Position numbers and translations under genes: made by a program. Below the pieces are notes generated by a model. That model was given only the letters and a program-made list of their open reading frames with translations, did not search any database and was not told where the DNA came from. From NCBI GenBank assembly GCA_963668695.2, contig CAXXLQ010000004.1, forward strand, positions 2,016,001 through 2,080,000: a DNA stretch of 64,000 bases, in the 5' to 3' direction. This DNA comes from Vicinamibacteria bacterium (GTDB lineage: Bacteria > Acidobacteriota > Vicinamibacteria > Marinacidobacterales > Marinacidobacteraceae). Positions 8,853 through 59,142 of the stretch are shown here, piece by piece (position 1 is the stretch's first letter; each line of letters begins with the position of its first letter).

Positions 8853-9563
8853 CAGCCGGTGGTGGAACCCGGGTGAGCGCCGAGGTCGGCCAGTTCTCCC
8901 GGTGGGGCCAGTCCTCCCGGTGGGGGCCCGGCTGACGAGGCGCGTGAGGGAGGAGCCCCCACCGGGAGAACTGGCCCGGGTGTATTTCGACTGAAACGCA
9001 ACGATGAGCGGCGCGCAGCGACGCGGTGAACAGCCGGTGGTGGAACCCGCGGGAGCGCCGAGGCGCCCGGCTGACAAGGCGCGTGAGGGAGGAGCCCCCA
9101 CCGGGAGAACTGGCCCGGGTGTATTCCGACCGAAACGCAACGATGAGCGGCGCGCAGCGACGCGGTGAACAGCCGGTGGTGGAACCCACGTGAGCGCCGA
9201 GGCCGGTGAGGCGCCCGGCTGACAAGGCGCGTGAGGGAGGAATACCGGGTGTATTCCGACCGAAGCGCAACGATGAGCGGCGCGAAGCGACGCGGTTCAG
9301 CCGGGATGGATCGCCGGCCGAACGCCGCGCGGGTTTCATCACCGGTTGTTTGGCCGGTGGTGGATCGCCGGCCGAGCCCCCACCGGGAGAACTGGGCCGC
9401 GTGGGTTTCACTGCCGGCTGTCTGGCCGGGATGGATCGCCGGCCGAGCCCCCACCGGGAGAACTGGGCCGCGTGGGTTTCATCACCGGTTGTTTGGCCGG
9501 GATGCATCGCCGCTCGAGCCCCCACCGGGAGAACTGGGCCGCCGGGGTTTCACCACAGGCTGT
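8852..9563. mobile_element. MITE family A, internally amplified composite
   Basis: TA-ACAGCC...GGCTGT-TA; left TA lies in the amidohydrolase stop codon; repeated left-end and right-end modules; about 7 copies of the 20-nt module. Confidence 0.8.
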
Positions 9564-9605
9564 TAAGCGGAGGATCAAAGGATCCCGGATTCGACAAATC
9601 GCCGG

Positions 9606-9634
9606 TTGACATGCCGCCTGAGGAGCGGTACAAA
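9606..9634 (+). promoter_or_regulatory. Sigma70-type promoter
   Basis: TTGACA, 17-bp spacer, TACAAA. Confidence 0.6.
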
Positions 9635-9640
9635 CGCAAA

Positions 9641-9921
9641 CACCAACTTGACCCGGTTTCGGAAAGGGGGTCGGAAATGACTGCACCGCCGGACGACTTT
9701 GCACTCCAGGCCCCAACGGGGGTTCCGGGAGGGTCTGAAGGGAGCTTCCCGAACCGCGACGGGGCCTGGAACTCACGGGACGAGTTCCCGGGGTCCTGAC
9801 CACTCATACCGGCAGAAGCGGGGCTGATTGTCAGGGGCCGGAGCGCAGCAAGCGCCCGCCCCTACCGCTCCCCACTGCGATGAGGCCTAGCGGTTTCAGA
9901 GGGACCCCGGGGCTTTTTTTT
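9641..9921 (+). ncRNA. Candidate structured ncRNA or cis-regulatory leader (family not recognised)
   Basis: Four consecutive stem-loops after the promoter; last is a ~125-nt rod (cccggggtcc...ggaccccggg) followed by T8. Confidence 0.45.
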
Positions 9922-13927: not shown

Positions 13928-14145
13928 GCAGCCGGTGGATAAAGTGGCGTGAGCGCCGAGGCTGGCCAGTTCTCCCGGTGGGGGCGAGGCGCCCGGCTGA
14001 CAAGGCGTGCAAGGGAGGAGCCCCCACCGGGAGAACTGGCCCGAGTGTATTTCGACCGAAGCGCAACGCAGAGCGCCTCGAAGAGGCGCGGTTCAGCCGG
14101 GATGAATCGCCCGCCGAACGCCGCGTGACTTTGTCCACCGGCTGC
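13928..14145. mobile_element. MITE family A copy with two 20-nt modules
   Basis: GCAGCCGGTGGATAAAGT...ACTTTGTCCACCGGCTGC ends; modules at 13966 (+) and 14020 (-). Confidence 0.8.
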
Positions 14146-15482: not shown

Positions 15483-15600
15483 GAGCGCCGGCCAGTTCTC
15501 CCGGTGGGGGCCTTCAGACCGGCATCGCGGCCGAAGGCCGCGAAACTCCCGCTGCCCGACTCCCTCAAGTCGCGTCCAACCCCGGGGATGGTTCCGCGCT
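15479..15600 (+). repeat. REP-like family C copy with 20-nt module
   Basis: gTAGGAGCGCCGG[module]cttcagaCCGGC atcgcggccgaaggccgcgaaactccc; near-identical to 39525-39648; overlaps permease stop. Confidence 0.75.
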
Positions 15601-21000: not shown

Positions 21001-21527
21001 CGTCGCGGGTCCACGTGCCGCACCAGTTCAACATCAACGGCACCTACCGCACCCCCGGAGACAACCCGATCTTCAGCGGCTGGGCGCTTTCAGTGGTGAC
21101 GATCATGCGGAGCGGTTTCCCGGTGGTGGTCTACCAGAACTCGAACCCGCTGAGTTCCTACGGCTTCAACCACCAGCGGCCCACGAGCGCGAACCTGAGC
21201 GGCGGCGGCAACCCGACGGGAAACCACACCAGTTACCTTTCGGCTGGCGACGCGCAGCTCACCCAGGGACTCACGCTGAGCAACTCTCCGAACACCACGG
21301 CCTCGGTGCGCAGCCCGGTCCTCATCAACTGGGACGTCGCGCTCGAGAAGACCACGCGGATCTACGAGGACATGAACCTGACCCTGCGGTTCGAGTTCAT
21401 TGACCTCTTCAACCACGTGAATTGGCGCGGACCCCGCACGATTCTCGGTAACAGCAACTTCGGGAGCATCCCGGGTACCCGCGGCTACCCGAGGACCTTC
21501 CAGTTCATGGGCAAGATCACCTTCTAG
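18015..21527 (+). CDS. Oar-like TonB-dependent receptor with carboxypeptidase-regulatory-like N-domain
   Basis: Signal peptide AFA/Q, GVLPGVTVTL, NNYTVDG, YDAEMGRTGGG, QDDWR, C-terminal PRTFQFMGKITF; GGAGG RBS. Confidence 0.92.
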   Translation: MRSFLFRTVALLGVLGLATGAFAQTFQGGIRGVIRDADGGVLPGVTVTLNNPDTGVSRTAVANAVGEYNFSSVQPGTFTLRAELSGFAPYVSEGLIIGVSSFLVLDATLVIGGIEETVTVTGETPLIETATASVASSVTRAELDVLPTPGRNVFILAVGTPNVVHTGNPVWVKQSDQTNSSLLSLGGGPLRGNNYTVDGVSTTDLRNRTAIIPIFDAVQEMKVQINTYDAEMGRTGGGVFNVIARGGTNNWAGGGTWQKRPGKVDTLWRALSYTDQLSSDANPDRTFADRPFDLWGGSFGGPILSDRTFFWAAAEGFEDLLADNTEVIIPTSAEAAGDFSGSGTTIYNPFDLDANGNRRPFPGNVIPSHMVDPAGRGLAQLLTNLGPGGPISSSGAQATTALQADLNLTHAFSDNWQSSLSYLYYTSKEGAFQQYTDLLGLDSAPAYGIGAADLLRDVHVVAFNNTFVVGDASVLTLRYGQMYFNDSVINPEYGIDQIRGELGIQGGFLDQIGAQDGYISQFPSVSVSNFGDGGSTHGSWGNTDTQWWSREVSGTYSMFLGNHTVKYGGQWRRMGLHNASFSNGFSMSFAQKFTQGPSPTAPDSGSGSGLADLLLGIPNGGSATIAQAADVFIDYYGGFIQDDWRPSQNLVLNLGLRVERESGLMEDDNGFAVGWDRSNPYPMQVGLDTSLEGSLPGFPLRGGLMYAGLDGNPTHQWDPPGIKLGPRVGFAYTINPETVIRGGYAVFWAPYAIPSGGGASNLGTYGYTNVTSLATSVDGKTPPTATASNPFPNGIGNPIGNANGRLQNIGGNVYFNEQFRASPYINKWSLDLQRDIGNDLAVKIGYVGSQGADIPIGGTNNSSININQLADQYLSLGDRLNDEYPNPFYGDSRFGSFSGAETLPLGQLLRPYPHFRNVLARHVSSGKSLYNALRVEFEKRFRGNWGARINYTFTKHEDNIYENNQLLENETNVIYNTPDECAFAKCGPLSDADYGPSRVHVPHQFNINGTYRTPGDNPIFSGWALSVVTIMRSGFPVVVYQNSNPLSSYGFNHQRPTSANLSGGGNPTGNHTSYLSAGDAQLTQGLTLSNSPNTTASVRSPVLINWDVALEKTTRIYEDMNLTLRFEFIDLFNHVNWRGPRTILGNSNFGSIPGTRGYPRTFQFMGKITF

Positions 21528-21549
21528 GCGATCTCAACCCAGAACCTTG

Positions 21550-21580
21550 GGGGCGGGCCTTCGGGCCCGCCCCTTTTTTT
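21550..21580 (+). terminator. Rho-independent terminator
   Basis: ggggcgggcc-ttcg-ggcccgcccc followed by T7. Confidence 0.9.
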
Positions 21581-21593
21581 GTCGGAGCGCCGT

Positions 21594-21830
21594 GGAGCGC
21601 CGGTCTCTGACCGGCATCGTGGCCCGCAGGGCCACGAAACTCCCATCGCCAGTCCCCGTATGGCGCAGCAGGCAACGAGGATGGCGCAGCGCCACCTAGG
21701 CGTCCCCAGGGCGTTTCGCCGTCCCCGGTTAGGCCCGGTGAATCGGCGAGCATGACGATGGGAGTTTCGCGGCCTTCGGCCGCGATGCCGGCCACTTCTC
21801 CCGGTGGGGGCCTCCAGACCGGCGCTCCTA
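21594..21830. repeat. Inverted pair of family C REP-like elements (REPIN-like)
   Basis: ggagcgccggtctctgaccggcatc...aaactccc and inverted gggagttt...gatgccgg[module]ctccagaccggcgctccta. Confidence 0.75.
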
Positions 21831-43764: not shown

Positions 43765-44052
43765 CGGGTCGGTCGGGGGAATGGCGGAGGGTCCTGAGAG
43801 GTAGGGGAGGGGAGCAGCGAGTGTATTGCGGTCCTCACGAGAATCGGAGGAGCTTCGCGGTAGGCTGGAAACCCGTGAGACATCAGTTTCTTCTCCTTCC
43901 TCGTCTCCTGCGGAGAAGAGGGCGTCTCAGGCACGCCTACCGTCCCGCTGGCGCCGCCGCGGTTTCGCCCGCGTTCCGCGGGCGGTGCCAGTCTGAAGAC
44001 TGGCGTTCCCGGGCGTGCCGTCTTTCGGTGGGTTGGCGTATCGCTCAACGCG

Positions 44053-45175: not shown

Positions 45176-45189
45176 CGGGCGACGCGCTA

Positions 45190-45606
45190 GCAGTCGGTGG
45201 GCGAAGTCGCGTGAGCGCCGAGAGCGGCGAGGCGTCCGGCTGACAAGGCGCGCGAGGGAGGAGCCCCCACCGGGAGAACTGGCCCGCGTGTATTGCGACC
45301 GAAGCGCAACGATGAGCGACGCGAAGCAGAGCGGTGAACAGTCAGTGGTGGAACCCGCGTGAGCGCCGAGGCTGGCGAGGCCCAGTTCTCCCGGTGGGGC
45401 CAGTTCTCCCGGTGGGGGCCCGGCTGACAAGGCGCGTGAGGGAGGAATACCTGGTGTCTTTCGACCGAAACGCAACGATGAGCGGCGCGCAGCGACGCGG
45501 TCAGCCGGGATGGATCGCCAGCCGAACGCCGCGCGGGTTTCATTACTGGCTGTTTGGCCGGAATGAATCGCCGCTCGAACGCCGCGTGAGTTGGTTCACC
45601 GGCTGC
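45190..45606. mobile_element. MITE family A composite
   Basis: TA-GCAGTC...GGCTGC-TA; duplicated left and right modules; three 20-nt modules. Confidence 0.8.
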
Positions 45607-45614
45607 TAGCGCGT

Positions 45615-46304: not shown

Positions 46305-46359
46305 GACACTTCCTCCATCGGGAAACCGCCGCTCGGGGCGGTCAGCCGAATGTCGCAGT

Positions 46360-46950
46360 TTAACAGCCGCAGGTTGCCCACCGTACGCGGCTGGCCCAGG
46401 CTCAGCAGGCTGTGCTGAAACCCAGGCGGCGTCCGTCCGCGACGCGGCAGGTTGCCCACCGCACGCGCGTGCCGCGGGCTTAACAGGCTGTGCTGAAACG
46501 TCAGGCGGCGTCCGTCCGCGGCGCGGCGCGGCGCGCCGCGGGGGAGGGGTGTGGGGAGGGGTTTCCCCTCTCCACGAAAAAGGATGGCGCGGATCGCGAA
46601 GCGATCCGCGCCATCACCCCGTGGGGGAAGCGCCTGGAGGACGCACGCGGAAGCGCCTTCGGCGCGATTCTCGCCGGGGAAATAGTGCGGGGTCCTTTCC
46701 CAAGGGCTGGCGGGGTGCTTTCCCCACGGGCTGTCCGCGGCGCGGAGCGCCGCGGGGGAGGGGTGTGGGGAGGGGTTTCCCCTCCCCGCGAAAGAAGGAT
46801 GGCGCGGATCGCGAAGCGATCCGCGCCATCACCCCGTGGGGGAAGCGCCCCGCACGCGGAACAACTGGCGCCTTCGGCGCGATTCGTCAGGGAAATAGTG
46901 CGGGGTGTTTTCCCCACGGGGTGATGGCGGGGTGCTTTCCCCACGGGCGG
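46360..46950. repeat. Family B palindromic repeat cluster (two tandem units plus duplicated caggctgtgctgaaac end-like motifs)
   Basis: ggggtgtggggaggggtttcccctc and gatggcgcggatcgcgaagcgatccgcgccatc twice; related to 32160-32330. Confidence 0.75.
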
Positions 46951-47211
46951 TCAGTACGCTGATTCGAAGCAGCTCCGTCCGGACCCCGCCGTGCATTGGT
47001 CGCGGTCGGCCACCCGGCCGTCGGGGCCAAGGCAGTTCTGGGTGTGGGTGCACCAGAAATAGCCGTCGCCGGGTATGCCGCCCGGGACGCTCGGGTCGTA
47101 CTCCACGTCCATGTACATCGCCTTGGAGCGAAGACGGTGGCAGAGCGAGAAGGCGGCGCGTCCGGAGGCTCCCGGAATGGCGCTTTTCGGAACGGTTGTT
47201 TTGGTGGCCAT
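46951..47211 (-). CDS. Small Cys-rich protein at end of molybdoenzyme operon
   Basis: 86 aa, five Cys (LCHRLRSK, FWCTHTQNCLGPDG, C..GRSCF); GAGGA RBS. Confidence 0.7.
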   Translation of the reverse strand: MATKTTVPKSAIPGASGRAAFSLCHRLRSKAMYMDVEYDPSVPGGIPGDGYFWCTHTQNCLGPDGRVADRDQCTAGSGRSCFESAY

Positions 47212-47222
47212 CGTCTATCCCC

Positions 47223-48167
47223 TCACATGGCGGCGAGCGCGGCGCGCTTCACCGCGACCCGCGCGAGCTGGATCTTGTAGGCGTTTCCGGAGAGCGCGGC
47301 GGCGTCCGCCACTGCGGCGTCACCCGCCGCCTGGGCGCTGGCCTCGCTGATGCCGCCGGCGAGCGCGCCGGCGGCGGCGACGCTCATCCACGGGGTCGGG
47401 GCGACGTGTCCGAGCACCACCCGGGTGCCCCCGTCGCCCATCGCTACCGAGGCGGTGGCGAGCGGCCAATCGAAGCCCTTCCGGTTTCGCACATCGTAGG
47501 TGGCGTTCTTGCTCGCCCGCATCGGGATGGTGACCCCGGTGACGATCTCGGCGGCGCCCAGCGTGAACTCGCTCTCGTCGCTCGACATCGGCGTGCGATA
47601 GAGATCCTCCAGCGCGATGGTGCGCTCGCCGTCCGGACCCAGGATGGTCGCCGACGCGCCGAGCGCGATCAGCGGCGGCGCGAGGCTCGACGGGTTCACG
47701 AAGACCGCCGCCCCCGAGTTCCCGAAGATCGCGTGGTAGCGGTTGTCGCCCGTCTTCGCCATGGACTCGCCGTCGTGCATCGGGACGAGCCCGAAACCGG
47801 CCCGGAAGTACCAGCAGCGGGGCCGCTGGCAGAGGTCGCCGCCGACCGTCCGCATCGACAGGACCTGCCGGCTGCGGACCCCGGCGATCGCCTGGGCGAG
47901 CGCGGGAAACGACTCGCGGATCGCGCGGTGCTCGCCCAGCGGCCCGAGGCGGGTCGTGGCGCCGATGTGGAGCCCGTCGCCGGTCTCGTGAGCCCCGGTG
48001 AGATCCTGGATCGCCTTCAGGTTGACGAGGCGCGACGGCGCCGCCGCCCCGTCCTTCATCAGGCTCAGCAGGTCGGTGCCGCCGGCGAGCGCCACGGCGC
48101 CCTCGGCGGACAGCATCCGGATCGCGTCTTCGGCGGTCCGGGGACTCGTGTATTCGAAGGCGCGCAT
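47223..48167 (-). CDS. Xanthine-dehydrogenase-family FAD-binding subunit (PaoB/YagS-like)
   Basis: LAGGTDLL, TVGGDLCQRPRCWYFR, NAYKI. Confidence 0.92.
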   Translation of the reverse strand: MRAFEYTSPRTAEDAIRMLSAEGAVALAGGTDLLSLMKDGAAAPSRLVNLKAIQDLTGAHETGDGLHIGATTRLGPLGEHRAIRESFPALAQAIAGVRSRQVLSMRTVGGDLCQRPRCWYFRAGFGLVPMHDGESMAKTGDNRYHAIFGNSGAAVFVNPSSLAPPLIALGASATILGPDGERTIALEDLYRTPMSSDESEFTLGAAEIVTGVTIPMRASKNATYDVRNRKGFDWPLATASVAMGDGGTRVVLGHVAPTPWMSVAAAGALAGGISEASAQAAGDAAVADAAALSGNAYKIQLARVAVKRAALAAM

Positions 48168-50293
48168 CAGGCCATTCCTCCACCGTTGATTGCGGCGAGC
48201 ACCCGGTCGGGGGTCATCGGCAGCTCGTTGATCGGGACTCCGGCAGCGTTGCTCGCCGCGTTGGCGATCGCCGCTCCCGGCGCGATGACCGGCGGCTCAC
48301 CGAGGCCGATCACGCCCCGTTCGTCGTAGCCGGGTCCGGTCATCATGTGGACGATCATCTCGCCCACGTCCTCGATTCCGGCGAGCTTGTAGAACTCCAT
48401 GTCGGCATTCAGCATCAGGCCGGTGTGCGGATCGAAGATCCGTTCTTCGGTGAGCGCGTAGGTGACGCCCATGATGAGCGCTCCGTACACCTGGCTCTCC
48501 GCGGTCTTCAGGTCGAGGACCAGCCCGCAGTCCTGGACCGCCACCAGCCGGTTGATGGAGACCACGCCGGTCTCCATGTCCACGCTGACGTCGGCCATCT
48601 GGACGCCGCACACCCCGCTGTCGTTCAGTTGACCCGGGCCGGGGTTGGCGCCGGCGGCGGACACCGGGTTCACCCCGATGAGGGTCGCGGCCTGCCGCCA
48701 GGGCATCGCTGCCATGGAGCCGTCCTGGAAGTGGAGCTGGCCCTCCTTGAGTTGAAGGTTCGCGGCCTCGGTCCCGAGCCGGGGTGCGATCCGCTCGAAC
48801 ACCGCATCCACGGCGTTGAGCGCCGCCCGGCGGGTGGAGCCGCTGACCCCTCCCACCGTGGTGCTGCCTCCCGAGGCGCCGGAGGCCGGGAGCACGCTCC
48901 GCCCCATGGTCACCTTGACCTGGTCGATCCCGACGCCGAAGGTCTCGGCGAGCACCAGGGCGATCACCGTGCGGGTTCCGGTGCCGAGGTCCTGACTCCC
49001 GATGCGGGCTTCGACCAGCCCGTCGCGGTAGGCGAGCACCTCGCAGTTGCTCCGGTGGCCGCGTCCGCCCCAGGTGTGGAGCGCGAGGCCGAGTCCGGAA
49101 CGCACCGTCCCGGTGGCCGAACCACGCGGGCGCCAGCGATCGCGCCAGCCCATCAGTTCGGCGGCTTTTTCGAGCTCCTCGGAGTAGACGCCGGACCGCT
49201 CGCCGGTCTTGTCGATGTTCTTCAGGAACATCGCGAGCGGGTCCATTCCCGCCGCGTGGGCGAGGTCCTCGAGCGCCCGCATCGTGACGAAGCACGCCTG
49301 CGGGTGGTTCGGCGCGCGCCAGGCCCGCGCCGGCCCGGTGTTGGTGGGCACCGAGGTGTGGGCGTGGGTCTGGTCGGCGAAGCCGAATACGTAGGGAATC
49401 GGCGGCGAGCCGGCGCCCGACGGACCCCCGGACCCCCAACTCTTCGAATCCCAGGCGACCACGTTGCCGTCGGCGTCGGCGGCTGCCGAAATCTCCGCGT
49501 GGGTGGAGGGGCGCGCACCGGCGACGCTGACTTCCTGGTCGCGGTCGAGCATCAGCTTTACCGGACGCCCGGTCATGCGCGCGAGTTCCGCGCAGACCAC
49601 GCCCCAGCGGTCGACGCTGAACTTGCTGCCGAAGCCGCCGCCCATGTACTGGGTCTCGACGTGGACGTTCGAGGCCGGGATGCCGATCGCTTCGCCGAGC
49701 TGCGAAGCCACGCCGGAAATGGCCTGCGTGGAGGCCCAGACCGTCACCGTCTCCTCGTCCTCCCATTCGGCGACCTGGCCGTGGGGTTCGAGGGAGCAGT
49801 GGGCGATCTGGGCCACGTGGTAGGTGCCGTTCGAGCGGGTCGCCGCCGAGGCCATGGCGGCCGCCGGGTCGCCGGTGGTCTCCGCCTGGGCGGGCTGGGC
49901 GTCGGGCGCCTCGTCCACGGCGCGCTCGTTCACGAAGTGCGGCAGCACCTCGTAGTCGACCTTCACCGCGGCCGCGGCGTCGCGCGCCACCTCTTCGGAG
50001 GTGGCCGCCACCGCCACGATCTCGTCGTGGGCCCACTGGATCTCGGTCCCCACGTCCTGAATGACGTGGACCTTGACCACCCCGTCCATCGCCTCGGCGG
50101 CCGACGTGTCGATGCCGGTGATGCGGGCGTGGGCGTGCGGACTCTGGACCATGACCGCCCAGACCATGCCGAGCCGGTTCATGTCGTAGGCGTATTTCGC
50201 CCGTCCGGTCACCTTGACCGGGCCGTCGAGCCGGCTGATGCGTTTGCCGATGTGCAGGCGGTCGCCTGCTGCGGGCCAGGTGTACTCAGCCAT
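48167..50293 (-). CDS. Xanthine-dehydrogenase-family molybdopterin-binding subunit
   Basis: KVTGRAKY, MGGGFGSK, WRAP, QDLGTG, QVYGA, GLGEP. Confidence 0.93.
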   Translation of the reverse strand: MAEYTWPAAGDRLHIGKRISRLDGPVKVTGRAKYAYDMNRLGMVWAVMVQSPHAHARITGIDTSAAEAMDGVVKVHVIQDVGTEIQWAHDEIVAVAATSEEVARDAAAAVKVDYEVLPHFVNERAVDEAPDAQPAQAETTGDPAAAMASAATRSNGTYHVAQIAHCSLEPHGQVAEWEDEETVTVWASTQAISGVASQLGEAIGIPASNVHVETQYMGGGFGSKFSVDRWGVVCAELARMTGRPVKLMLDRDQEVSVAGARPSTHAEISAAADADGNVVAWDSKSWGSGGPSGAGSPPIPYVFGFADQTHAHTSVPTNTGPARAWRAPNHPQACFVTMRALEDLAHAAGMDPLAMFLKNIDKTGERSGVYSEELEKAAELMGWRDRWRPRGSATGTVRSGLGLALHTWGGRGHRSNCEVLAYRDGLVEARIGSQDLGTGTRTVIALVLAETFGVGIDQVKVTMGRSVLPASGASGGSTTVGGVSGSTRRAALNAVDAVFERIAPRLGTEAANLQLKEGQLHFQDGSMAAMPWRQAATLIGVNPVSAAGANPGPGQLNDSGVCGVQMADVSVDMETGVVSINRLVAVQDCGLVLDLKTAESQVYGALIMGVTYALTEERIFDPHTGLMLNADMEFYKLAGIEDVGEMIVHMMTGPGYDERGVIGLGEPPVIAPGAAIANAASNAAGVPINELPMTPDRVLAAINGGGMA

Positions 50294-50966
50294 TGGTGGT
50301 TCCTCCTGCGGAGGCCTGGGCCACGGCGGCCCGGATGCCGGCGTAGGTGCCGCAGCGACACAGGTTGCCGCCGAGTTCCCGGTGGATGGTGTCCCGGTCG
50401 GGGTTCGGATGACGGTTCAGAAGCGCCGTGCTGGCGACGATGAAGCCGGGAGTGCAGAAGCCGCACTGCTGCGCGTCGTTGTCCACGAACGCCTGCTGGA
50501 TCGGTTGCATGTTTTCCGGCGATCCGATGCCCTCGATGGTGGTGATGTCCACGCCCTGCGCTTCGATCGCGAGCACCGAGCAGGAATAGACCGGATCCCC
50601 GTTCATGAGCACCGTGCAGGCGCCGCAGGTTCCGCGGTCGCAGACCTTCTTGGCGCCGGTCAGGTCGAGGTGGTTTCGGAGCGCATCGAGCAGCGTGACC
50701 CTGGGTTCCAGGGTGGCTACGCGCGCCTTGCCGTTGATCTTGAAGGCCATGTCCACCGCGCCCGGCCCGGCGATTCCCGGCTCTCCCTGAGCCGCGGCTT
50801 CATCCAGCATGCCGGACAGCAACCCCGCGGAGGCGGCGCCGGCGGCGGCGCTTCCCCGCAGGAACTGGCGGCGGGAGAATCCTCCCGGCGGCGGCGTTCC
50901 GGCCTGCTCGCTGCTCTCTTCGGGGAGCTCCCGGCGAGGCGTTTTCGGGTACCTGGTCTGGGCCAT
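50286..50966 (-). CDS. 2Fe-2S subunit with Tat signal (PaoA/YagT-like)
   Basis: SRRQFL; CDRGTCGAC, QCGFCTPG, NLCRCG. Confidence 0.93.
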   Translation of the reverse strand: MAQTRYPKTPRRELPEESSEQAGTPPPGGFSRRQFLRGSAAAGAASAGLLSGMLDEAAAQGEPGIAGPGAVDMAFKINGKARVATLEPRVTLLDALRNHLDLTGAKKVCDRGTCGACTVLMNGDPVYSCSVLAIEAQGVDITTIEGIGSPENMQPIQQAFVDNDAQQCGFCTPGFIVASTALLNRHPNPDRDTIHRELGGNLCRCGTYAGIRAAVAQASAGGTTNG

Positions 50967-51006
50967 CGAAGTCCCTCCGGATCGAGTTTTCAAGAGGGCG
51001 ACTATA

Positions 51007-51788
51007 ACAGTCGGTGGTGGAACCCACGTGAGCGCCGAGGCCGGTGAGGCGCCCGGCTGACAAGGCGCGTGAGGGAGGAATACCGGGTGTATTCCGACCG
51101 AAACGCAACGATGAGCGGCGCGCAGCAGAGCGGTGAACAGCCGGTGGTGGAACCCGGGTGAGCGCCGAGGCCGAGGCCCAGTGGTGGAACCCCGTGAGCG
51201 CCGAGGCGCAGCGACGCGGGCCAGTTCTCCCGGAGGGGGCGAGGCCCAGTTCTCCCGGTGGGGCCAGGGGCCCGGCTGACAAGGCGCGTGAGGGAGGAAT
51301 ACCGGGTGTCTTTCGACCGAAACGCAACGATGAGCGGCGCGCAGCGACGCGGTGAACAGCCGGGGTGGATCGCCGGGGCCGAGCGCCGATGAGCCGGCGA
51401 GAACTGGGCCGCGTGGGTTTCACTACCGGGCGGTTCAGCCGGGATGGATCGCCGGCCGAGCCCCCACCGGGAGAACTGGGCCGCGTGGGTTTCACTACCG
51501 GCTGTTTGGCCGGGATGGATCGCCGGCCGAGCCCCCACCGGGAGAACTGGGCCGCCGGGTTTCACTACCGGCTGTTTGGCCGGGATGGATCGCCGGCCGA
51601 GCCCCCACCGGGAGAACTGGGCCGCGCGGGTTTCATCACAGGCTGTTTGGCCGGGATGGATCGCCGGCCGAGCCCCCACCGGGAGAACTGGGCCGCGCGG
51701 GTTTCATCACAGGCTGTTTGGCCGGGATGGATCGCCGGCCGAGCCCCCACCGGGAGAACTGGGCCGCGTGGGTTTCACCACCGGCTGT
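51007..51788. mobile_element. MITE family A composite with five tandem 70-71-bp right-end units
   Basis: TA-ACAGTC...GGCTGT-TA; units start 51438, 51509, 51579, 51650, 51721. Confidence 0.82.
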
Positions 51789-51852
51789 TAGCAGTCGAAA
51801 GGCCCCCGCCGGGAGGGGCCAACCGCCGCTCCCGCCGGTTACGATCCCGGAT

Positions 51853-52245
51853 ATGCGGCGCGTTTCCCCGTCATTCCCGGATCCGTCCTTCACGGACCGG
51901 CGCCGGCGTGATCCGGTCCCGATCGGGGAACTCGTCGGCCTGACCCTGCCGCGCCGTGTGCGGGGGGGCATCCTCGACCTCGGTTTCCTGAAGACGCTCT
52001 GGGAGCAGGCGGCGCCCGACGGGATCGCTGGCAAGGCCGTTCCGGTGCGCTTCGAGAACGGGGTCCTGACGATCCTCGCCTCCGACCCGGGGACCCGCGC
52101 CGCGGCGCACCGCCGGCGGCTGGAAATCGCGCGCCGGCTGGTGAGCGCCGCCGGCCTTCCGGACGCCCGGCTGCGGGTGCGCGTCGAGCTCGGCGATCCG
52201 GCGGCGTCGCGGCCCGGAGGAGCGGAGTCAGGAGCGGAGTCATGA
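51853..52245 (+). CDS. DUF721/DciA-like protein
   Basis: PVPIGELV...[11 protein letters not shown]...[11 protein letters not shown] pattern; coupled to thiolase start. Confidence 0.6.
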
Positions 52246-53444
52246 CCGGGGCGGCGCCGGACGGCGGCCCACCGGTCTGGATCTCCTCCGCGGTCCGCAC
52301 TCCGATCGGGAAGCTGCTCGGCGGGCTATCTCCGCTGCCCGCCCCGAAACTCGGCGCGCTGGTGGTCCGGGAAGCGGTGGAACGGGCCGCGGTGCCGGCG
52401 GACGCCGTGGACGAGGTCATCCTCGGGAACGTGCTCACCGCCGGACTCGGCCAAAACCCCGCCCGCCAGGCGGCGCTCGGCGCGGGACTGCCCGCCGGGA
52501 CCGGCGCGCTCACCATCAACAAGGTGTGCGGGTCGGGGCTGAAGGCGGTGATGCTCGCCCGCCAGGCGATCCTCGCCGGGGATGCGGACGTGGTGGTCGC
52601 GGGCGGGATGGAGTCCATGTCGAACGCCCCGCACCTCGTTTCCGGGATGCGGGCCGGATCGAAGATGGGGGACGGCACCCTCGTGGATTCGATGGTGCAC
52701 GATGGGCTCACGGACGCCTTCGAGGACATCCATATGGGCGAGACCGCGGAGCGGGTCGCGGACCGCTACGGCGTGACCCGCGAGGCGATGGACGCTTGCG
52801 CCGCCGAGAGTCAGCGCCGCGCCCACGCCGCCACCGAGGCCGGCCGCTTCGCCGCCGAGATCCTTCCGGTGGAGGTTCCGGGGCGCAAGGGCCCGGTGGT
52901 GGTCGAGCGGGACGAGGGCATCCGCCCGGACGCCACCGAGGCGTCGCTCGCGCTGCTCCGTCCGGTCTTCCGGAAGGACGGCCGGGTGACCGCGGGGAAC
53001 GCTCCCGGGGTGAACGACGGCGCCGCTGCGCTGGTGATCGCCTCGGACGCGGCGGTCCGGCGCCACGGCCTGCCGCGCCTCGCGCGGATCGTCGGGCAGG
53101 CGGTCTCGGGACTCGAGCCCCAGTGGGTGATGATGACCCCGGTGCCGGCCGTCCGGAGGCTTCTCGAGCGGCTCGACTGGACGGTGGACGGGGTGGACTG
53201 CTTCGAGATCAACGAGGCCTTCGCCGCCCAGGCGGTGGCGGTGCGCGGAGAACTCGGGCTCCCGGCGGACCGGACGAACATGAACGGGGGCGCGGTCGCG
53301 CTCGGCCACCCCATCGGGGCGAGCGGGGCCCGCATCCTCACCACGCTGCTGTATCTGCTCCGGGAGCACCAGCTGGACCGGGGCGTTGCGAGCCTTTGTC
53401 TCGGCGGCGGCAACGGGGTCGCTCTGGGAGTGGAACGTGCCTGA
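52242..53444 (+). CDS. Acetyl-CoA acetyltransferase (thiolase)
   Basis: [37 protein letters not shown]. Confidence 0.95.
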
Positions 53445-54324
53445 TCCGGCCGCGCTGCGGCGCGCCCTGGTCGTGGGCGCCGGGACCATGGGGAACGGCA
53501 TCGCCCAGGTCTTTGCGCTTGCCGGGATCGAGGTCGATCTCGTGGACATCCGGGAAGAGTTCACGGCGCGGGGGATGGCGACCATCGAGAAGAACCTGGG
53601 ACGCCAGGTGAAGCGGGGAACGGTGTCCGAGCCGGAAGCGGCCGCCGCGCTTTCCCGCATCCGGCCGGGAACGGAGATGGCGCCCGCCGCCGACGCGGAG
53701 TTCGTGATCGAGGCCATCGTCGAAGACGAAGCCAAGAAACTCTCGCTCCACGCCGCGCTCGAGCCGCGGCTGCCGCCGGAGACGATCCTCGCGACGAACA
53801 CCTCGTCGATCTCCATCACCCGGCTCGGCGCTCGGTCGGGCCGTGCCGACCGGTTCATCGGCATGCACTTCATGAACCCGGTTCCGGTCATGGAACTGGT
53901 GGAGGTCATCCGGGGGCTCGAGACCTCGGACCCGGTGTTCGAAACCACCATGGGCCTCGCGCGCCGCCTCGGGAAGACGCCCTGCGCGGTCAACGACGCT
54001 CCCGGGTTCGTCTCCAACCGGGTCCTCATGCCCATGATCAACGAGGCCGCCTTCGCGCTCATGGAAGGCGTCGCCGCCGCCCGGGACATTGACCGGATCA
54101 TGACGCTCGGGATGCGGCACCCGATGGGGCCGCTCGCCCTCGCCGATCTCATCGGCCTCGACGTGGTGCTCGACATCCTCCGGGTCCTCCAGGAGGGGTT
54201 CGGGGACCCGCGCTACCGCCCGTGTCCGCTCCTCGTGAAGCTGGTGGACGCCGGCCGGCTCGGCAAGAAGACCGGCCGCGGCTTTTACGACTACCCGGGT
54301 CCGGGCGCCGGAACGGGCGGGTAA
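53437..54324 (+). CDS. hbd: 3-hydroxybutyryl-CoA dehydrogenase
   Basis: [46 protein letters not shown]. Confidence 0.92.
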
Positions 54325-54441
54325 CAGCCTGTGGACGGAGTGGTGTGAGCGCCGAGGTCGGCGTTCTCTCGGCGGACGAGGCGCGCGCCGGCCGAGCCCC
54401 CACCGGGAGAACTGGGCCGCGCCACTCCGTTTACAGGCTGT
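54324..54441. mobile_element. Short MITE family A derivative
   Basis: 20-bp imperfect inverted ends acagcctgtggacggagtgg / ccactccgtttacaggctgt; begins in hbd TAA stop; one 20-nt module. Confidence 0.72.
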
Positions 54442-54580
54442 TCGCACCTTCCCGCGGGCTTTTTGCGCCGGGGTGGGACAAAATTTGGCTCAATTCCGTC
54501 TTAGCCTTTAGAGACCTGAAGCGGCGCCGCCGGCCCTGGGGCTGGGGCGCCCAATTCCGACGAGGAGACTCCCGCCAGCC

Positions 54581-55663
54581 ATGAAGCCAGCCATGAAGCC
54601 AGACGTCAAGAAAGCGCAGAGCGCCGAGCAGCGTTCCCGCGCCCTCGACATCGCCCTCGAGCAAATCCAGAAACAGTTCGGCCGGGGGGCCATCATGCGC
54701 CTCGGCCAGTCCGCCCTGGACGTGTTGTCCATCCCGACCGGCGTGATTTCGCTGGACGCCGCCCTCGGGGTGGGCGGCTTTCCCCGCGGCCGGGTGATCG
54801 AGGTGTTCGGGCCGGAGTCTTCCGGAAAGACCACCCTGGCGCTCACGGTGGTCGCCTCCGCCCAGGCGCTCGGCGGCGTCGCGGCCTTCGTGGACGCCGA
54901 GCACGCCCTGGATCCGGTCTACTGCCGGGCGCTCGGGGTGAATACGGACGAGCTGCTCGTGTCCCAGCCCGACGACGGCGAGCAGGCGCTCGAGATCACC
55001 GAGACGCTGGTGCGCAGCGGCTCGGTGGATGTCATAGTGGTGGACTCGGTCGCCGCCCTCGTACCCCGCGCCGAGCTCGACGGGGAGATGGGGGACTCCC
55101 AGGTGGGCCTCCAGGCGCGTCTCATGTCGAAGGCGCTCCGCAAGCTCACCGGGATCGTCTCGAAGTCGGCGACCTGTCTGGTCTTCATCAACCAGCTCCG
55201 CGAGAAGATCGGGGTCATGTTCGGCAACCCGGAGACCACCAGCGGCGGACGCGCGCTCAAGTTCTATTCCTCGGTGCGCGTGGACATCCGGCGGATCGGC
55301 GCCCTCAAGGAAGGGGACGCCGTGATCGGGAACCGGACGCGGGTCAAGATCGTGAAGAACAAGGTGGCGCCTCCCTTCCGGCAGGCGGAGTTCGATATGC
55401 GCTACGGCGAGGGGATTTCCCGGACCGGCGACTTGATCGATCTGGCGGTGAAGGAGCGGATCATCGAAAAGAGCGGCGCCTGGTATTCGTACCAGGGCGA
55501 ACAGATCGGCCAGGGACGGGAGCGGGTCCGCCGCGCCCTTCTGGAAGATGAGCCGCTGGCGGCGGAGATCGAATCCCGGGTGCGGAAGGCGCTCGGCCTT
55601 TCAGGGGGGGATGATGCGGATGACGGGGTTGGCGGGGACACTGCGACCGGCGCGAAGGGCTGA
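54581..55663 (+). CDS. recA: Recombinase A
   Basis: [45 protein letters not shown]. Confidence 0.98.
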
Positions 55664-55709
55664 TCGCTGTGCCAAACTACCGCGCCCGCGCGACCTGCGG
55701 GGGCCCGTA

Positions 55710-55782
<73 letters not shown>

Positions 55783-55904
55783 CCCAGGCCGGAGCGGACC
55801 CGAAGGGGCCGCCCGGCGCTGTGTGCCGGTCTCCGCCCGGCGTCGTCCGCGGAATGCGGGCGAGACCGCGAATCGCCGACTGAGAGGAAGCGCGGGGACG
55901 GCTT

Positions 55905-56104
55905 GGAACGCCGACCTCCGGTCGGCACAGCGGCGCGCAGCGCCGCGGGCGGTTCACCGCTGATCGTGGGAGAGGGCACGCAGGCCCGGGAACGCCGACC
56001 TCCGGCCAGTCCTCCCGGTGGTCGGCACAGCTGCGCGTCAGCGCAGCGAACGGCGCACCGCCGATCCACTTCAAGCGCGGCCGGTATAGGGAACGCCGCC
56101 TCCA
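55905..56104 (+). repeat. REP-like family D (ggaacgccgacctccggtcggc), three units
   Basis: Units near 55905, 55988 (carries truncated module) and a truncated one near 56089. Confidence 0.65.
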
Positions 56105-56118
56105 ACTGACCTGCGTTA

Positions 56119-56354
56119 ACAGCCTGTGGTGAAACCCGGGTGAGCGCCGAGGTTGGCCAGTTCTCCCGGTGGGGGCGAGGCCCAGTTCTCCCGGTGGGGC
56201 CAGTTCTCCCGGTGGGGGCCCGGCTGACAAGGCGCGTGAGGGAGGAATACCTGGTGTATTTCGACCGAAACGCAACGCAGAACGGAGCGAAGCGGAGTGG
56301 TTCAGCCGGGATGGATCGCCAGCCGAACGCCGCTTGGCTTTTACCACAGGCTGT
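56119..56354. mobile_element. MITE family A, 236 bp, TA duplication
   Basis: TA-ACAGCC...GGCTGT-TA; same length and module layout as 40880-41115; degenerate partial copy follows to about 56445. Confidence 0.85.
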
Positions 56355-56539
56355 TAGGCGCGTGAGGGAGGTGCGACGCCAGCGCCGCAAAGCGGCGCGG
56401 TTCAGGCGGGATGCATCGCCGCTCGAACGCCGCCTGGAGGCTGTTAAGCGCGTGCGACAGCCAGCCTGCCCCGGGGACGTGAAGGCGGAATACAAGGAAT
56501 CCGGGTATCCTTACTTTCTCCCGTCACAGGAGACACCCC

Positions 56540-56767
56540 TTGCTCGCCAAATTGACATCCAAGAATCAAATCACCCTGCCCAAGGCGGTGATCGCGGATT
56601 TCCCCGACTCCCGGTACTTCGACGTGACCAAAGAGAACGGAAAGATCGTCTTGACGCCGGTGCGCCTCACGCGGGCTGATTCGGTACGCGCCAAGCTCTC
56701 CGAACTCGGCATTACCGAGGCCGACGTGGCGGGAGCCGTCGCTTGGGCCCGTCGGCCCTCCGAATAG
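56540..56767 (+). CDS. AbrB/MazE/SpoVT-family antitoxin
   Basis: AKLTSKNQITLPK...GKIVLTP. Confidence 0.88.
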   Translation: MLAKLTSKNQITLPKAVIADFPDSRYFDVTKENGKIVLTPVRLTRADSVRAKLSELGITEADVAGAVAWARRPSE

Positions 56768-56773
56768 GCCTGC

Positions 56774-57202
56774 GTGGCTGCGCCGCACCTCGTTCTGGAC
56801 ACGAACGTGGTGCTCTCGGCCCTTGTCTTCCCTGCGGGGGTGCTGTCGTGGCTGCGCGGGGCGTGGCAAGCGGGCCAGGTCGTTCCGTTAGTTGGCCGTG
56901 CGACCGCCGAGGAACTGATTCGGACTCTCGCCTATCCGAAGTTTCGGTTGACCGACGAGGAGCAGGAGGAGTTGCTGGCCGACTATCTGCCGTGGTGCGA
57001 GACGGTTCGGGTGCTTCGACCGCCCGCCGTACCCGAATGCCGGGATCCGTCAGATCGCTCTTTCCTCGAACTGGCGCTCGTGGGTGGGGCCGGTGCCCTC
57101 GTTACCGGAGACAACGATTTGCTCGCTCTTGCGCCGCAGTTTTCTGTTCCCATTCTCGATCCCGCGGCATTGCGGGCGCGCCTTCAGATCGGGCGGCTCT
57201 GA
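56774..57202 (+). CDS. PIN-domain toxin
   Basis: VLDTNVVLSAL, CRDPSD..FL, LVTGDNDLL. Confidence 0.9.
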   Translation: MAAPHLVLDTNVVLSALVFPAGVLSWLRGAWQAGQVVPLVGRATAEELIRTLAYPKFRLTDEEQEELLADYLPWCETVRVLRPPAVPECRDPSDRSFLELALVGGAGALVTGDNDLLALAPQFSVPILDPAALRARLQIGRL

Positions 57203-57454
57203 GGCTCACCCGGCTGGCTCCGGCGGACAAGGCGCCGGCGTTCCCGCCCCTACTGGCTGTTCTTCGCGGCCGTGGTTTCCACCACCTGAGCGAGCATTTC
57301 CGCGGTGCGGGTGCAGAATTTCCAGGAAGTTTTCCTCCCAGGAGTCAGTTTCTGGCGGCGAATTGAGCTGGATTAGGCGCAAATCGAGAAACCCACTGTA
57401 TTTTCCTTGAAAAACTGTTGGTAGTCATCTGATTTTCAAGTATTTTCGCGTGCC

Positions 57455-58696
57455 ATGATCCTCGCACGCCCCGGTGCGATTCGGCGTATTGCCCAGTCGT
57501 TCCGGGTCCATCCCGCGGTGGCGTTGCTCGGGCCCCGCCAGTGCGGCAAGACAACCCTGGCCCGCCTCTTGGCCGCTGGCGAGCCGGTATCCACGTTCTT
57601 CGACCTGGAGCGGGATGCCGACTTCCGGCGTCTCCAGAACCCGGAGGCGACCCTCTCGCCCCTCGGCGGACTCGTCGTGGTGGACGAGATCCAACTTCTC
57701 CCGCAGTTGTTCCGGGCGCTGCGGCCCATCATCGACCATCCGGCCGCCGCGGCCCGGTTTCTGTTACTCGGGAGCGTGTCGCCGACGGTCGTCAAGGGAG
57801 CGTCGGAATCGCTTGCCGGCCGGGTGGGGCTGGTGGACCTCGCCGGGTTCGATCTCGGCGAGGTTGGGTCGGGCCCGGACTGGCGGATCCTCTGGGAGCG
57901 TGGAGGCTTCCCCCGCAGCTATCTCCAACCGGACACGAGTGCGTCCCCGGACACGAGTGCGTCCCCGGACACGAGTGCGTCCCCGGACACGAGTGCGTCC
58001 CCGGACACGAGTGCGTCCTACGAATGGCGCGAGAACTTCATCCAGACTTTTCTGCAGCGCGACATTCCCGCGCTCGGGGGAAACGTCCCGGCCGCGGCGC
58101 TCCGTCGCTTCTGGTCCATGACGGCGCATTTTCACGGGCAGGTCTGGAACGCCGCCGAGTTCGCCCGCGCCCTCGGGCAGGGGGAGGCGGCGGCGCGCCG
58201 CTACCTCGACTTGCTCGCCGGCGCGTTCGTGGTCAGGGCGCTTCCCCCGTGGTTCGAAAACCTCAAGAAACGCCAGGTCCGTTCCCCCAAGGTGTACGTG
58301 CGCGACACCGGCATGCTCCACGCTCTGCTCGGCGTGCCGTCCCTCGCCGTGCTCACCGGCCACCCGAAGGTCGGAGCCTCGTTCGAGGGTTTTGCCGTCG
58401 AACAGATCTGCGCCGCCCTGTCTCCCCGCGATCCCTTCTTCTGGGCCACCCACGCCGGCGCGGAACTCGATCTCCTGCTGACCTCGAACGGCAAGCGCTA
58501 CGGCTTCGAGGTCAAGTTCACCGAGGCGCCCCGCACCACCCGCTCGATGCGGGTCGCGCTCTCCGACCTCGGTCTCGAACGCCTTTTCGTGGTCTATCCG
58601 GGGGATGAGGGCTATCCCCTCGATTCCCGGATCGAGGCTCTTCCCGTGCGTGAAATCCCGCGGCTACCCGCGCGTCCGGAGTTTGCCGCGGGGTGA
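57455..58696 (+). CDS. AAA_14 ATPase with DUF4143 domain
   Basis: GPRQCGKTT, VDEIQ, ESLAGR, GGFP, SPKVYVRDTG, ELDLL..GFEVK. Confidence 0.9.
   Translation: MILARPGAIRRIAQSFRVHPAVALLGPRQCGKTTLARLLAAGEPVSTFFDLERDADFRRLQNPEATLSPLGGLVVVDEIQLLPQLFRALRPIIDHPAAAARFLLLGSVSPTVVKGASESLAGRVGLVDLAGFDLGEVGSGPDWRILWERGGFPRSYLQPDTSASPDTSASPDTSASPDTSASPDTSASYEWRENFIQTFLQRDIPALGGNVPAAALRRFWSMTAHFHGQVWNAAEFARALGQGEAAARRYLDLLAGAFVVRALPPWFENLKKRQVRSPKVYVRDTGMLHALLGVPSLAVLTGHPKVGASFEGFAVEQICAALSPRDPFFWATHAGAELDLLLTSNGKRYGFEVKFTEAPRTTRSMRVALSDLGLERLFVVYPGDEGYPLDSRIEALPVREIPRLPARPEFAAG
57929..58018 (+). repeat. In-frame VNTR, 5 x 18 bp (PDTSAS)
   Basis: ccggacacgagtgcgtcc repeated five times perfectly. Confidence 0.95.
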
Positions 58697-58779
58697 GGAG
58701 GGAGCGTAGGCGTCCTTCACGGGGGTCAGCGCCATGCGGGTGGAGAGCGGTACGCGGTTTCGCGGCCCTGGCGGGCTGC

Positions 58780-59142
58780 GGTGCCGGCCGGAAGCCGGCG
58801 TTCCTGACGTGTGTGCCGTGCGGGTGAGTGGCGGAGGGAGTTTCGCCCGCTGTGCGGCCGCGATGCCGGTCTGAAGACCGGCGTTCCCAGCCCTCCGGGC
58901 CGCGGTGCCGACCGGAAGCCGGCGTTCCTGTGCCGTGCGGGTGAGTGGCGGAGGGAGTTTCGCCCGCTGCGCGGGCGATGGCGGTCTGAAGGGCCCCACC
59001 GGGAGAACTGCCCGGCGCTCCTGCGGTCGCGGGCCATTCCTCCCGCGGGGGTACGTGCCGAGACGGGAGCCATCCCGGAAACGGGCTGATACGCCGTCCG
59101 CCCCGCTGCGCGGGCGATGCCGGTGTGAACACCGGCGCTCCC
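58780..59142 (-). repeat. Cluster of family C-related REP-like units
   Basis: gggagtttcgcccgctg..cgatg.cggtctgaag..ccggcg.tcc twice (about 125-bp duplication), one with module; gccggtgtgaacaccggcgctcc at end. Confidence 0.7.

Follow-up and report, generated by a model that had tools for sequence, protein, structure and literature searches.

How does a word of 20 nt come to stand at ~1,500 places in one bacterial genome, mostly inside hairpin repeats and occasionally inside genes? The question is raised by a 64,000-nt stretch of DNA, here called the window (C4:2016001-2080000 in our contig names; contig CAXXLQ010000004.1 of assembly GCA_963668695.2), from a sponge-associated acidobacterium of the Vicinamibacteria, our source genome, whose assembly consists of four contigs (4.10 Mb, 67.5% G+C, 91.7% complete). 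In the window the word CCAGTTCTCCCGGTGGGGGC, which we call the module, interrupts several unrelated repeat families. Comparison of filled and empty sites leads us to propose that the module is a discrete, very small mobile insert placed at hairpin junctions by a trans-acting, sequence-specific activity, a reading to which we give a probability of about 0.6. We regard the 20-mer as non-autonomous; it would rank among the smallest mobile elements known. The sequences themselves show the polarity of insertion, the unit, the rule of replacement, the target bias, the loss of hairpins, the order of hosts and the recent uniformity, whereas recognition of targets as single strands or cruciforms, action in trans and the number of events are inferred.

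A constant word with sharp boundaries

The window contains 31 matches to CCAGTTCTCCCGGTGGGGGC at ≤2 mismatches (20 exact, 9 with one mismatch and 2 with two), 17 on the forward strand and 14 on the reverse, compared with 0 matches in 100 dinucleotide-preserving shuffles (0 expected vs 31). The original prediction, made from the letters of the window, had described a constant 20-mer repeatedly inserted into unrelated repeats, and every filled and empty pair it named was found as described. The genome-wide count that it proposed gives 1,601 copies at ≤2 mismatches in the whole assembly (962 exact, 535 with one mismatch and 104 with two), whose flank contexts we classified. Two contigs, C1 (144 kb) and C3 (31 kb), are haplotype copies of C4:304-421 kb and C4:3505-3538 kb, to which they are 97.6-99.9% identical, and the ends of C4 overlap by ~140 kb (C4:9-148 kb recurs at C4:3776-3914 kb). 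The assembly contains a mixture of close strains, or overlapping ends, and copy counts are a few percent too high as a result; the redundancy fits the reported contamination of 9.3%. Removal of the haplotig contigs and the duplicated C4 end leaves 1,497 copies. Throughout, copy counts are not event counts, counts from fragmented metagenome-assembled genomes (MAGs) are lower bounds, and the relatives are not independent of one another.

Predicted coding sequence (CDS) makes up 74% of the DNA, though it holds only 186 of the 1,497 non-redundant copies, a sixfold depletion. Within the window, 28 of the 31 copies are intergenic, and those at 45263, 45382 and 45400 lie in sequence of a miniature inverted-repeat transposable element (MITE) overrun by an over-long open reading frame (ORF). 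The earlier claim that the word occurs only inside intergenic repeats is therefore right for the window and wrong for the genome, in which an exact copy sits in frame in an RND gene (C4:394433).

Sequence conservation drops sharply beyond the edges of the module, and the only constraint outside falls on the two preceding bases. The 3′ end is more variable than the 5′ end (GC, GT or GG), and forms of 16-19 nt occur. The ends share only CCA..TGG, which is no real terminal inverted repeat, and the 20-mer has no dyad symmetry. Host sequence continues on both sides, which excludes the possibility that the word is the end of a larger insertion sequence (IS), and at 20 nt it is, as had been said, too small for a MITE. 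A tRNA or rRNA origin of the word was weighed by eye and dropped. A related word with a different 5′ end, GGGTTTCTCCCGGTGGGGGC, has its own recurrent flank context genome-wide, ccgatcatgg[GGGTTTCTCCCGGTGGGGGC], and could be a sister of the module or an earlier form of it.

Insertion as a unit into genes and repeats

Genes give the change its polarity, which is gain of the module. The RND efflux gene carries one exact module in frame, adding the residues PHRENW; the closest relative, G001, shares it, and 10 of 11 aligned same-genus orthologues are shorter by exactly 18 nt. Without the module the site reads CCCG[CG]CGGG, a palindrome; with it, CCCG[20-mer]CGGG, the 20-mer standing in place of the central CG. 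A module inside mfd of G012 adds 18 nt relative to the orthologue in the source genome, and another copy lies within coaBC of G010; orthologues of the RND pump, mfd and coaBC genes exist without the module.

The same step is seen within repeats. Haplotype contigs, which are 97.6-99.7% identical, differ by clean 18- or 19-nt presence or absence at the same repeat copy, the rest of the repeat being identical. These differences comprise ATA versus a 21-nt form at site 3 of the family we call MITE A (two adjacent units), GC versus the 20-mer at MITE A site 2 (two cases), one versus two tandem units, and 19 nt in REP C, a family of repetitive extragenic palindromic (REP) sequences. In G018, a member of another genus, the module is nested in itself as CCAGTTCTCCCGG[TG->20-mer]GGGGC (60 copies, vs 0 in four genomes of the source's genus) and also in CCGGTTCTCCCGGTAGGGGC, a linked variant that differs at two bases and of which G018 holds 118 copies and the source genome 4 exact ones. 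The nested copies retain the host's 5-nt suffix GGGGC although it equals the end of the insert, indicating that the available microhomology was not used. Gene insertions, nesting and haplotype polymorphism together exclude a single ancestral insertion as the origin of all contexts.

The replacement rule is 20 nt in and usually 1-3 nt out, with recurrent replacement of 2 nt (+18) or 1 nt (+19), and target duplication was not seen at the insertion sites; the description of a separate unit replacing 0-3 nt in unrelated repeats, with neither target duplication nor real terminal inverted repeats, was accurate. At least seven distinct sites had been claimed, a number now exceeded, for the source genome alone has at least 15 flank contexts with abundant empty forms, the fillers of which are 1-2 nt (AT, GT, GC, AC, TT, T or C), and 147 contexts are found overall. 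The GC replaced at MITE A site 2 is identical to the last two bases of the module, so that each insertion regenerates its own target; this explains the tandem runs, which reach 5 units and repeat every 18 nt. Logan contigs from 4 studies that cover window positions 39100-59050 break at every repeat, leaving filled or empty state unreadable per locus; in two runs loose contig ends run into the module at the empty REP D site (55921), though these may derive from other copies.

The filler at empty insertion points is unusually variable. At MITE A site 1 it is C in 183 copies, T in 173 and G in 73, with neighboring positions varying by 2-5%, and genome-wide the empty fillers between AAGCG and GCGGTTCAG are AC, GC, GA and GG. 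One possible reading of these variable fillers is that they are excision footprints.

Target preference and loss of hairpins

Flanks were compared among 1,786 examined copies from the source genome and 209 loci of relatives and metagenomes, 1,495 of them without tandem partners, which fall into 147 distinct contexts. With each context counted once, bases -2/-1 are G in 67/64% and C in 30/31%, with T at 0% at both positions, and A occupies +1 in 2%, compared with a genome background of 34% each for G and C. The module is thus found immediately 3′ of a G/C-G/C pair, GG in most contexts and frequently part of CCGG. At MITE A site 3, C precedes at -3 in 280 of 287 filled copies vs 188 of 266 empty ones, so an intact CCGG before the site matters.

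These flanks belong to hairpins. Empty REP C and empty MITE A site 3 fold as 7-bp hairpins, whereas the filled forms fold no better than shuffles; the empty REP C hairpin at 58850-58885 (-), GCCGGTC ttca GACCGGC, has a DNA fold of -8.2 kcal/mol and a z-score of -2.2, vs +1.0 for filled REP C. By inspection, the insert lies at the arm-loop junction or in an arm in REP C, REP D, MITE A and MITE E, the hairpins hit in MITE A being GCCGG-cgaggcgc-CCGGC and GGAATAC-cgggt-GTATTCC. The module typically enters a short GC-rich hairpin where stem meets loop, and its entry destroys the fold. The original prediction had suggested that the insert may tag or inactivate the repeats; of this, the destruction of host hairpins is what was observed.

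Host repeats in the window and their history

MITE A measures ~150-350 bp, with ~500 ends per orientation in the genome, AACAGCC(G/T)GTGGTG(A/G)AACCC, and T..A flanks; its internal 139-nt and 71-nt pieces are frequently repeated in tandem. A host array at 8851-9564 of the window consists of three MITE A units and four 71-nt units with inverted ends AACAGCCGGTGGTGGAACCC and GGGTTTCACCACAGGCTGTT, and is missing from the orthologous spacer (20-33 bp) in five relatives. Its modules include a tandem pair, the first unit of which (8890-8909, +; one mismatch) is effectively 18 nt long and the second (8908-8927, +) a T6C variant followed by CCGGCTGAC; exact copies at MITE A site 3 (8955-8974 and 9094-9113, both -), the former replacing ATA in the hairpin GGAATAC/GTATTCC; and exact copies in the 71-nt sub-repeat (9376-9395, 9447-9466 and 9518-9537, all -), the first replacing AC of ggccga[ac]gccgcg. 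One MITE A unit, at 9168-9299 (+), has sites 1, 2 and 3 all empty (t, gc and ata). The four MITE A pairs of the original prediction can be read directly from the window: gctgg[c]gaggc near 1929 vs the filled copy at 13966, gaggc[gc]ccggctgac near 9215 vs the double at 40943/40961, gagga[ata]ccgggtg near 9241 vs the reversed copy at 9094, and ggccga[ac]gccgcg near 9322 vs the reversed copy at 9376.

Elsewhere in the window, MITE A site 1 is filled by exact modules at 13966-13985 (after GCTGG), 40918-40937 and 56157-56176, and a site 1-like position by a one-mismatch copy at 51221-51240 (all +). Site 2 carries tandem pairs at 40943-40962 (an 18-nt unit) and 40961-40980, at 45382-45401 and 45400-45419, and at 56182-56201 and 56200-56219, the second unit being exact in each, and a one-mismatch copy at 51246-51265 (all +). 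Exact copies occupy site 3 at 14020-14039 and 45263-45282 (both -). Five exact modules (51460, 51531, 51601, 51672 and 51743; 51460-51762, -) stand one per 71-nt unit in a 5.6-unit array, and a fragment of the unit holds a further exact copy at 54396-54415 (-). MITE E at 32113-32337 has the terminal repeats of MITE A around another interior, and its hairpin, empty here, is filled twice elsewhere in the genome.

REP C is filled at 15492-15511 (+, exact), in the hairpin GGAGCGCCGG[M]CTTCAGACCGGC with M the module; from its other strand at 21792-21811 (+, one mismatch), GCGATGCCGG[M]CTCCAGACCGGC; and at 39537-39556 (+, T6C) and 58992-59011 (-, two mismatches), with a two-mismatch copy in a REP C-like sequence at 39700-39719 (+). 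In REP D, the empty hairpin at 55905-55931 (+), GCCGACCTCCGG followed by TCGGC, is matched by a copy at 56006-56021 (+) that has a 16-nt, 3′-truncated module, CCAGTCCTCCCGGTGG, with nothing replaced. The REP C pair that had been named (empty at 58850-58885, filled at 15492 and 21792) and the named REP D pair both read as described. A tRNA above the Rfam gathering score lies at 55710-55782 (+, 71.8 bits), and the REP D copies begin ~120 nt later. The only IS110-family element of the genome (C4:482090-483960) also sits in a REP D hairpin, between GTGCCGACCGGAGG and TCCGGCGTTCC, its insertion point being 7 nt from the module's REP D site; targeting of REPs is known for the IS1111 group of IS elements. 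Rfam gave no match on the repeats, and its other hit above the gathering score in the window is a suhB/mmgR-type small RNA at 21511-21587 (+, 45.4 bits). A perfect 18-nt x 5 tandem repeat, CCGGACACGAGTGCGTCC, at 57929-58018 within a predicted gene (57455-58696, +), is unrelated to the module, its 18-nt period notwithstanding.

The hosts differ in age. MITE E (~27 copies genome-wide) shares its ends with MITE A and has an unrelated interior, and one transposase evidently served both; an autonomous MITE A parent was not found in the genome, where end pairs 1.1-3.4 kb apart enclose ordinary genes only. G010 has 95 MITE A anchors and only 11 modules, which indicates that the MITE host is older than the insert. 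REP C, in turn, is the usual module host in low-copy genomes and in a second genus, g2, where it reads GGAGCGCCGG[M]C.TCAGACCGGC. In G010, 6 upstream and 11 downstream copies of REP C flank a REP-associated tyrosine transposase (RAYT) in opposite orientation, all 17 of them empty, and these inverted arrays identify REP C as the cognate REP of the RAYT.

Distribution among relatives

Within the family, the exact word is present in 17 of the other 18 genomes, and all 12 genomes from two sister families lack it. At ≤1 mismatch the source genome has 1,497 copies and three same-genus genomes have 690, 721 and 636, whereas the twelve remaining same-genus genomes have 7-104 each, closed ones included (11 in G010, 72 in G014); the three other genera of the family have 244, 6 and 0 copies, and the tally, which gives 0 for the 12 sister-family genomes as well, includes the unpublished G027. 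The exact word is also present in public MAGs labeled Candidatus Marinacidobacterium sp., Vicinamibacteria bacterium and Acidobacteria bacterium, short-read assemblies of other projects included, as well as in 88 metagenome-contig stretches and in contigs of runs from four studies; viral contigs gave 0 exact matches. We found no publication on repeats in Vicinamibacteria of sponges or in Marinacidobacterium, in a literature that is not searchable by sequence.

Number of events and the case for conversion

Among copies chosen by their flanks only, the insert diverges by 0.4% at MITE A site 3 and by 0.1% in the 71-nt unit, compared with 1.6-5.3% for the flanks, so that inside MITEs it is 5-40 times more uniform than its surroundings; in REP C, module (7.5%) and flanks (4-9%) diverge alike. 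Filled and empty site-3 copies have equal flank diversity, and fill state at this site is almost independent of single-nucleotide polymorphisms (SNPs) 10-21 nt away (A/G at R+10, 198/89 filled vs 196/69 empty, p = 0.23). MITE A sites 1-3, which lie within 60 nt, exist in all 12 combinations of state (9-164 copies each, 679 anchors). The uniformity of the insert inside MITEs and its near lack of linkage to SNPs 10 nt away point to many recent, site-specific insertions. The combinations, the equal flank diversity and the weak SNP linkage argue for many independent site-specific insertions into MITE copies that were already dispersed, or else for conversion tracts barely longer than the word.

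The second of these raises the question of whether any dedicated machinery is needed. Non-allelic conversion among mosaic repeats might spread the word unaided, with new contexts arising when one of its many genomic copies is, on rare occasions, copied into a stalled or broken hairpin by template switching or microhomology priming. The 12 fill-state combinations are what recombination would produce, a linked SNP accompanies one haplotype difference, the 3′ end varies, and hairpins are known fragile or stalling sites; moreover, GG predominates in the left flank and GGGG closes the unit, such that re-priming would yield the 18-nt tandem period. It is difficult to reconcile this view with identical boundaries in 147 contexts that share nothing in their flanks, or with in-gene targets that have no homology to donors. 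Nested copies keep the host GGGGC, and the word is found inside its own variant as well; site-3 fill state is unlinked to SNPs only 10 nt away, a distance shorter than plausible conversion tracts; and the greater uniformity of the insert than of its flanks also speaks against it. We therefore consider it unlikely that conversion and template switching are the whole explanation.

Search for an enzyme

The original prediction had named a reverse transcriptase (RT) or retron, an HUH or RAYT enzyme, a Cas1-like protein and a primase-polymerase as possible sources, and none of these was borne out. The source genome, which is 91.7% complete, has 0 matches to RVT_1 (PF00078), a family absent from 15 of the 18 family genomes; it has no Y1_Tnp (PF01797) match, no tblastn or protein match to the RAYT of its relatives, no resolvase and no Prim-Pol, and nothing over the cut-off for the TnpB zinc-ribbon family. 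One Cas1 (weak, 26 and 25 bits) lies beside a canonical CRISPR array of 45 repeats of GGTCCATCCCCGCGCGTGCGGGGGAAGC at C4:3280876-3283700 (L146:3876-6700), whose period of 61 nt is that of a ~29-nt repeat and a 32-nt spacer, and no module occurs within 15 kb of this locus. A separate tandem array with a 53-nt period lies upstream of the CRISPR array (L146:20-1135).

Neighboring genes offered no candidate. In the low-copy genomes G010, G012, G007 and G016, 62 module-adjacent ORFs compared with Pfam were housekeeping only, with no recurrent nuclease or recombinase; in G010 an aconitase and a pyridoxal phosphate enzyme are flanked by a module pair 4 kb apart. The densest module clusters include a 172-aa gene of no family between 9 + 9 modules, with HU/IHF-like and MerR genes as neighbors. 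Long multi-copy DNA contains a few two-copy transposase-like ORFs, named by eye from sequence, none of them tied to the module.

RAYT deserves closer attention as the possible enzyme, in which case the module would be a passenger of the REP C/RAYT system moved as single-stranded DNA at hairpins, and genomes lacking RAYT would shuffle earlier copies. RAYT is found in 13 of the 15 other genomes of the genus and in G016 (a protein query matched 10 of 11 same-genus genomes, and neither the source genome nor G004), with scores in relatives of 97.5 bits, for G010, and 88.9 bits against NCBIfam NF047646 (cut-off 80), the G010 protein also matching Pfam Y1_Tnp. REP C is the cognate REP in G010 and the commonest host in low-copy genomes and in the second genus, and the module copies in REP C are the most diverged; HUH enzymes act on single-stranded DNA hairpins and leave no target duplication. 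On the other hand, RAYT was not found in the source genome, G004, G015, G017 or G018, and three of these (the source genome, G004 and G018, with 1,497, 721 and 244 copies) are among the five richest; RAYT presence does not track module copy number. The REP C copies flanking the RAYT of G010 are empty in 17 of 17 cases, no module lies within 1.5 kb of RAYT in G001, G008, G010 or G016, and the syntenic RAYT locus of the source genome (thyA-folA-ridA ... M16 peptidase, C4:2178541-2182744) holds instead an 824-aa hybrid histidine kinase/response regulator and a cluster of 13 modules. Targets in MITE A, MITE E and genes are unlike REP C, no hairpin forms within the module itself, and the strands of the two replichores carry modules without bias, in a comparison that host orientation confounds. 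These observations make RAYT a doubtful candidate, less probable again than conversion, and under a trans-acting activity an enzyme other than those searched, perhaps encoded on an unbinned replicon, is more likely.

Discussion

Our results favor the module as a mobile insert placed in trans, and several points weigh against this. No enzyme was found, so a dedicated trans factor is something we infer only. The haplotype differences come from assembled contigs of one metagenome assembly alone, and one of them has a linked SNP 2 nt away, which indicates that conversion contributes at least sometimes; non-allelic conversion among 679 MITE copies could be the source of many filled and empty differences. 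The 60 nested copies of G018 may be a few events amplified with their host, the gene calls come from a crude codon-usage ORF filter, and heterogeneity at the 3′ end together with 18-nt upstream tandem units would also be expected from a polymerase-copying process.

A selected binding site, for example of a nucleoid or regulatory protein, would be favored wherever it arose and is compatible with any mechanism of insertion. Exact conservation of the 20-mer across three genera, its extreme uniformity inside MITEs and the existence of two linked-variant "flavors" are all consistent with such selection. In REP C, however, the word decays as fast as its flanks, close relatives range from 0 to ~1,500 copies, the word is tolerated in frame in three unrelated genes, it lacks dyad symmetry, and no partner protein was found; we judge this explanation improbable. 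An RT/retron, Cas1 or primase-polymerase product, or a sequencing or assembly artifact, deserves hardly any credence in spite of the constant short sequence and the Cas1 gene in the genome, given the absence of RVT_1 and Prim-Pol matches, a canonical Cas1 locus, and the loss of 1-3 nt at module sites in place of any repeat-duplication signature. The word occurs in independent long- and short-read assemblies, across technologies and projects, as well as in metagenome contigs and in the reading frame of genes, which refutes an artifact and with it an adapter origin.

How might a mobile 20-mer have reached its present distribution? We propose that the REP C hairpin was the first host and the one shared across genera, this being the cognate REP of RAYT in related genomes. 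In the source lineage the module would then have filled the TA-flanked MITE family at several fixed sites, the 71-nt sub-repeat, REP D and MITE E. Rare unique sites may have been hit as well, genes included, where a gain of 18 nt keeps the reading frame. Insertion would be the work of a sequence-specific factor that acts in trans and is conserved across this bacterial family. Its substrates would be extruded or single-stranded hairpins, its reaction one of cut and replace, and in the source genome it would be neither an RT, a Y1/RAYT enzyme, a serine recombinase nor a Prim-Pol. Amplification of hosts, and probably conversion between paralogous repeats, would account for further gain of copies. 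A stronger version, which we hold tentatively and would not back at even odds, is an undescribed DNA-writing activity that places one fixed 20-nt oligonucleotide at CCGG-type hairpin junctions with removal of 1-3 nt, and that has made hundreds of recent site-specific insertions without RT, HUH/Y1, serine recombinase or Prim-Pol.

If true, DNA writing of this kind would constitute a new class of transposition or templated sequence insertion, with an element about the size of a primer. Any enzyme able to write a short, predefined sequence into structured DNA would clearly be attractive as a tool. Hairpin repeats such as REPs and MITEs have parasites of their own, which destroy the hairpins on which those repeats depend, and essential genes gain six codons from such inserts. 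The case offers a single genome with ~1,500 copies, a dozen relatives with closed or almost closed genomes and 0 to ~1,500 copies, two sequence flavors, polymorphism between co-occurring strains and gene insertions polarized by outgroups, a combination that makes the movement of 20 nt a tractable comparative and biochemical question.

Comparison with known systems

The module shares features with several classes of bacterial repeat. Like REPs and REPINs, it is short, high-copy, mostly extragenic and clade-specific with sequence flavors, and its oldest host is a genuine RAYT-flanking REP; unlike them, it is not palindromic, does not fold and interrupts REPs, and no RAYT was found in the source genome. 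REPINs are, in at least one account, doublets of ~100 nt (PMC3116915). With MITEs, the module has in common that it is non-autonomous, amplified and intergenic. MITEs have terminal inverted repeats, a target-site duplication and a length of roughly 50-500 bp, whereas the module has neither such repeats nor a duplication, and its 20 nt contrast with the 150-350 nt of its host MITEs. The Neisseria dRS3/NIME mosaics and the BIMEs of E. coli place a ~20-bp word between variable intergenic units, as a junction or recombination-target motif; the module differs in that it interrupts units and genes that are otherwise intact. Rickettsia palindromic elements and the GC clusters of yeast mitochondria are small selfish inserts that occur in frame in genes too, but these are 30-150 nt and palindromic, unlike the 20-nt, non-palindromic module. 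Elements derived from IS200/IS605 (PATE-like) differ in their subterminal hairpins, which a Y1 transposase recognizes; the module lacks such hairpins, and the source genome has no Y1 gene. A DNA uptake sequence, which occurs in genes and spacers equally and arises by point mutation, is likewise a poor parallel, as the module is depleted sixfold in CDS and arises by a gain of 18-19 nt.

To our knowledge, mobile DNA of ~20 nt has been reported only for the small dispersed repeats (SDRs) of Nostoc, in 2008, and its mechanism was never solved. SDR4, SDR5 and SDR6 of Nostoc punctiforme are said to be "very small mobile repeated elements" of about 20-27 nt, with hundreds of dispersed copies in repeats and hairpin contexts; they were reportedly judged mobile from presence and absence, with neither an encoded protein nor an established mechanism. 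Going by these reported features, the module resembles them in its size, its many dispersed copies, its lack of coding capacity, its presence or absence at the same site and its nesting in other repeats. A passage in a paper citing Elhai et al. 2008 (Genome Res 18:1484) treats HIP1 as possibly the insertion site of SDR5 and places SDRs only in Nostocaceae. The module, in contrast, belongs to Acidobacteriota and is on its face unrelated in sequence, and for it a CCGG or hairpin target, a rule of 20 nt in and 1 to 3 nt out, 18-nt tandem re-insertion and in-frame insertion into genes are established. The Nostoc SDRs, of 21-27 nt, are thus the closest precedent, and the module is best placed beside them as a very small mobile repeat, one that comes from a new phylum and whose insertion rule and target are explicit.

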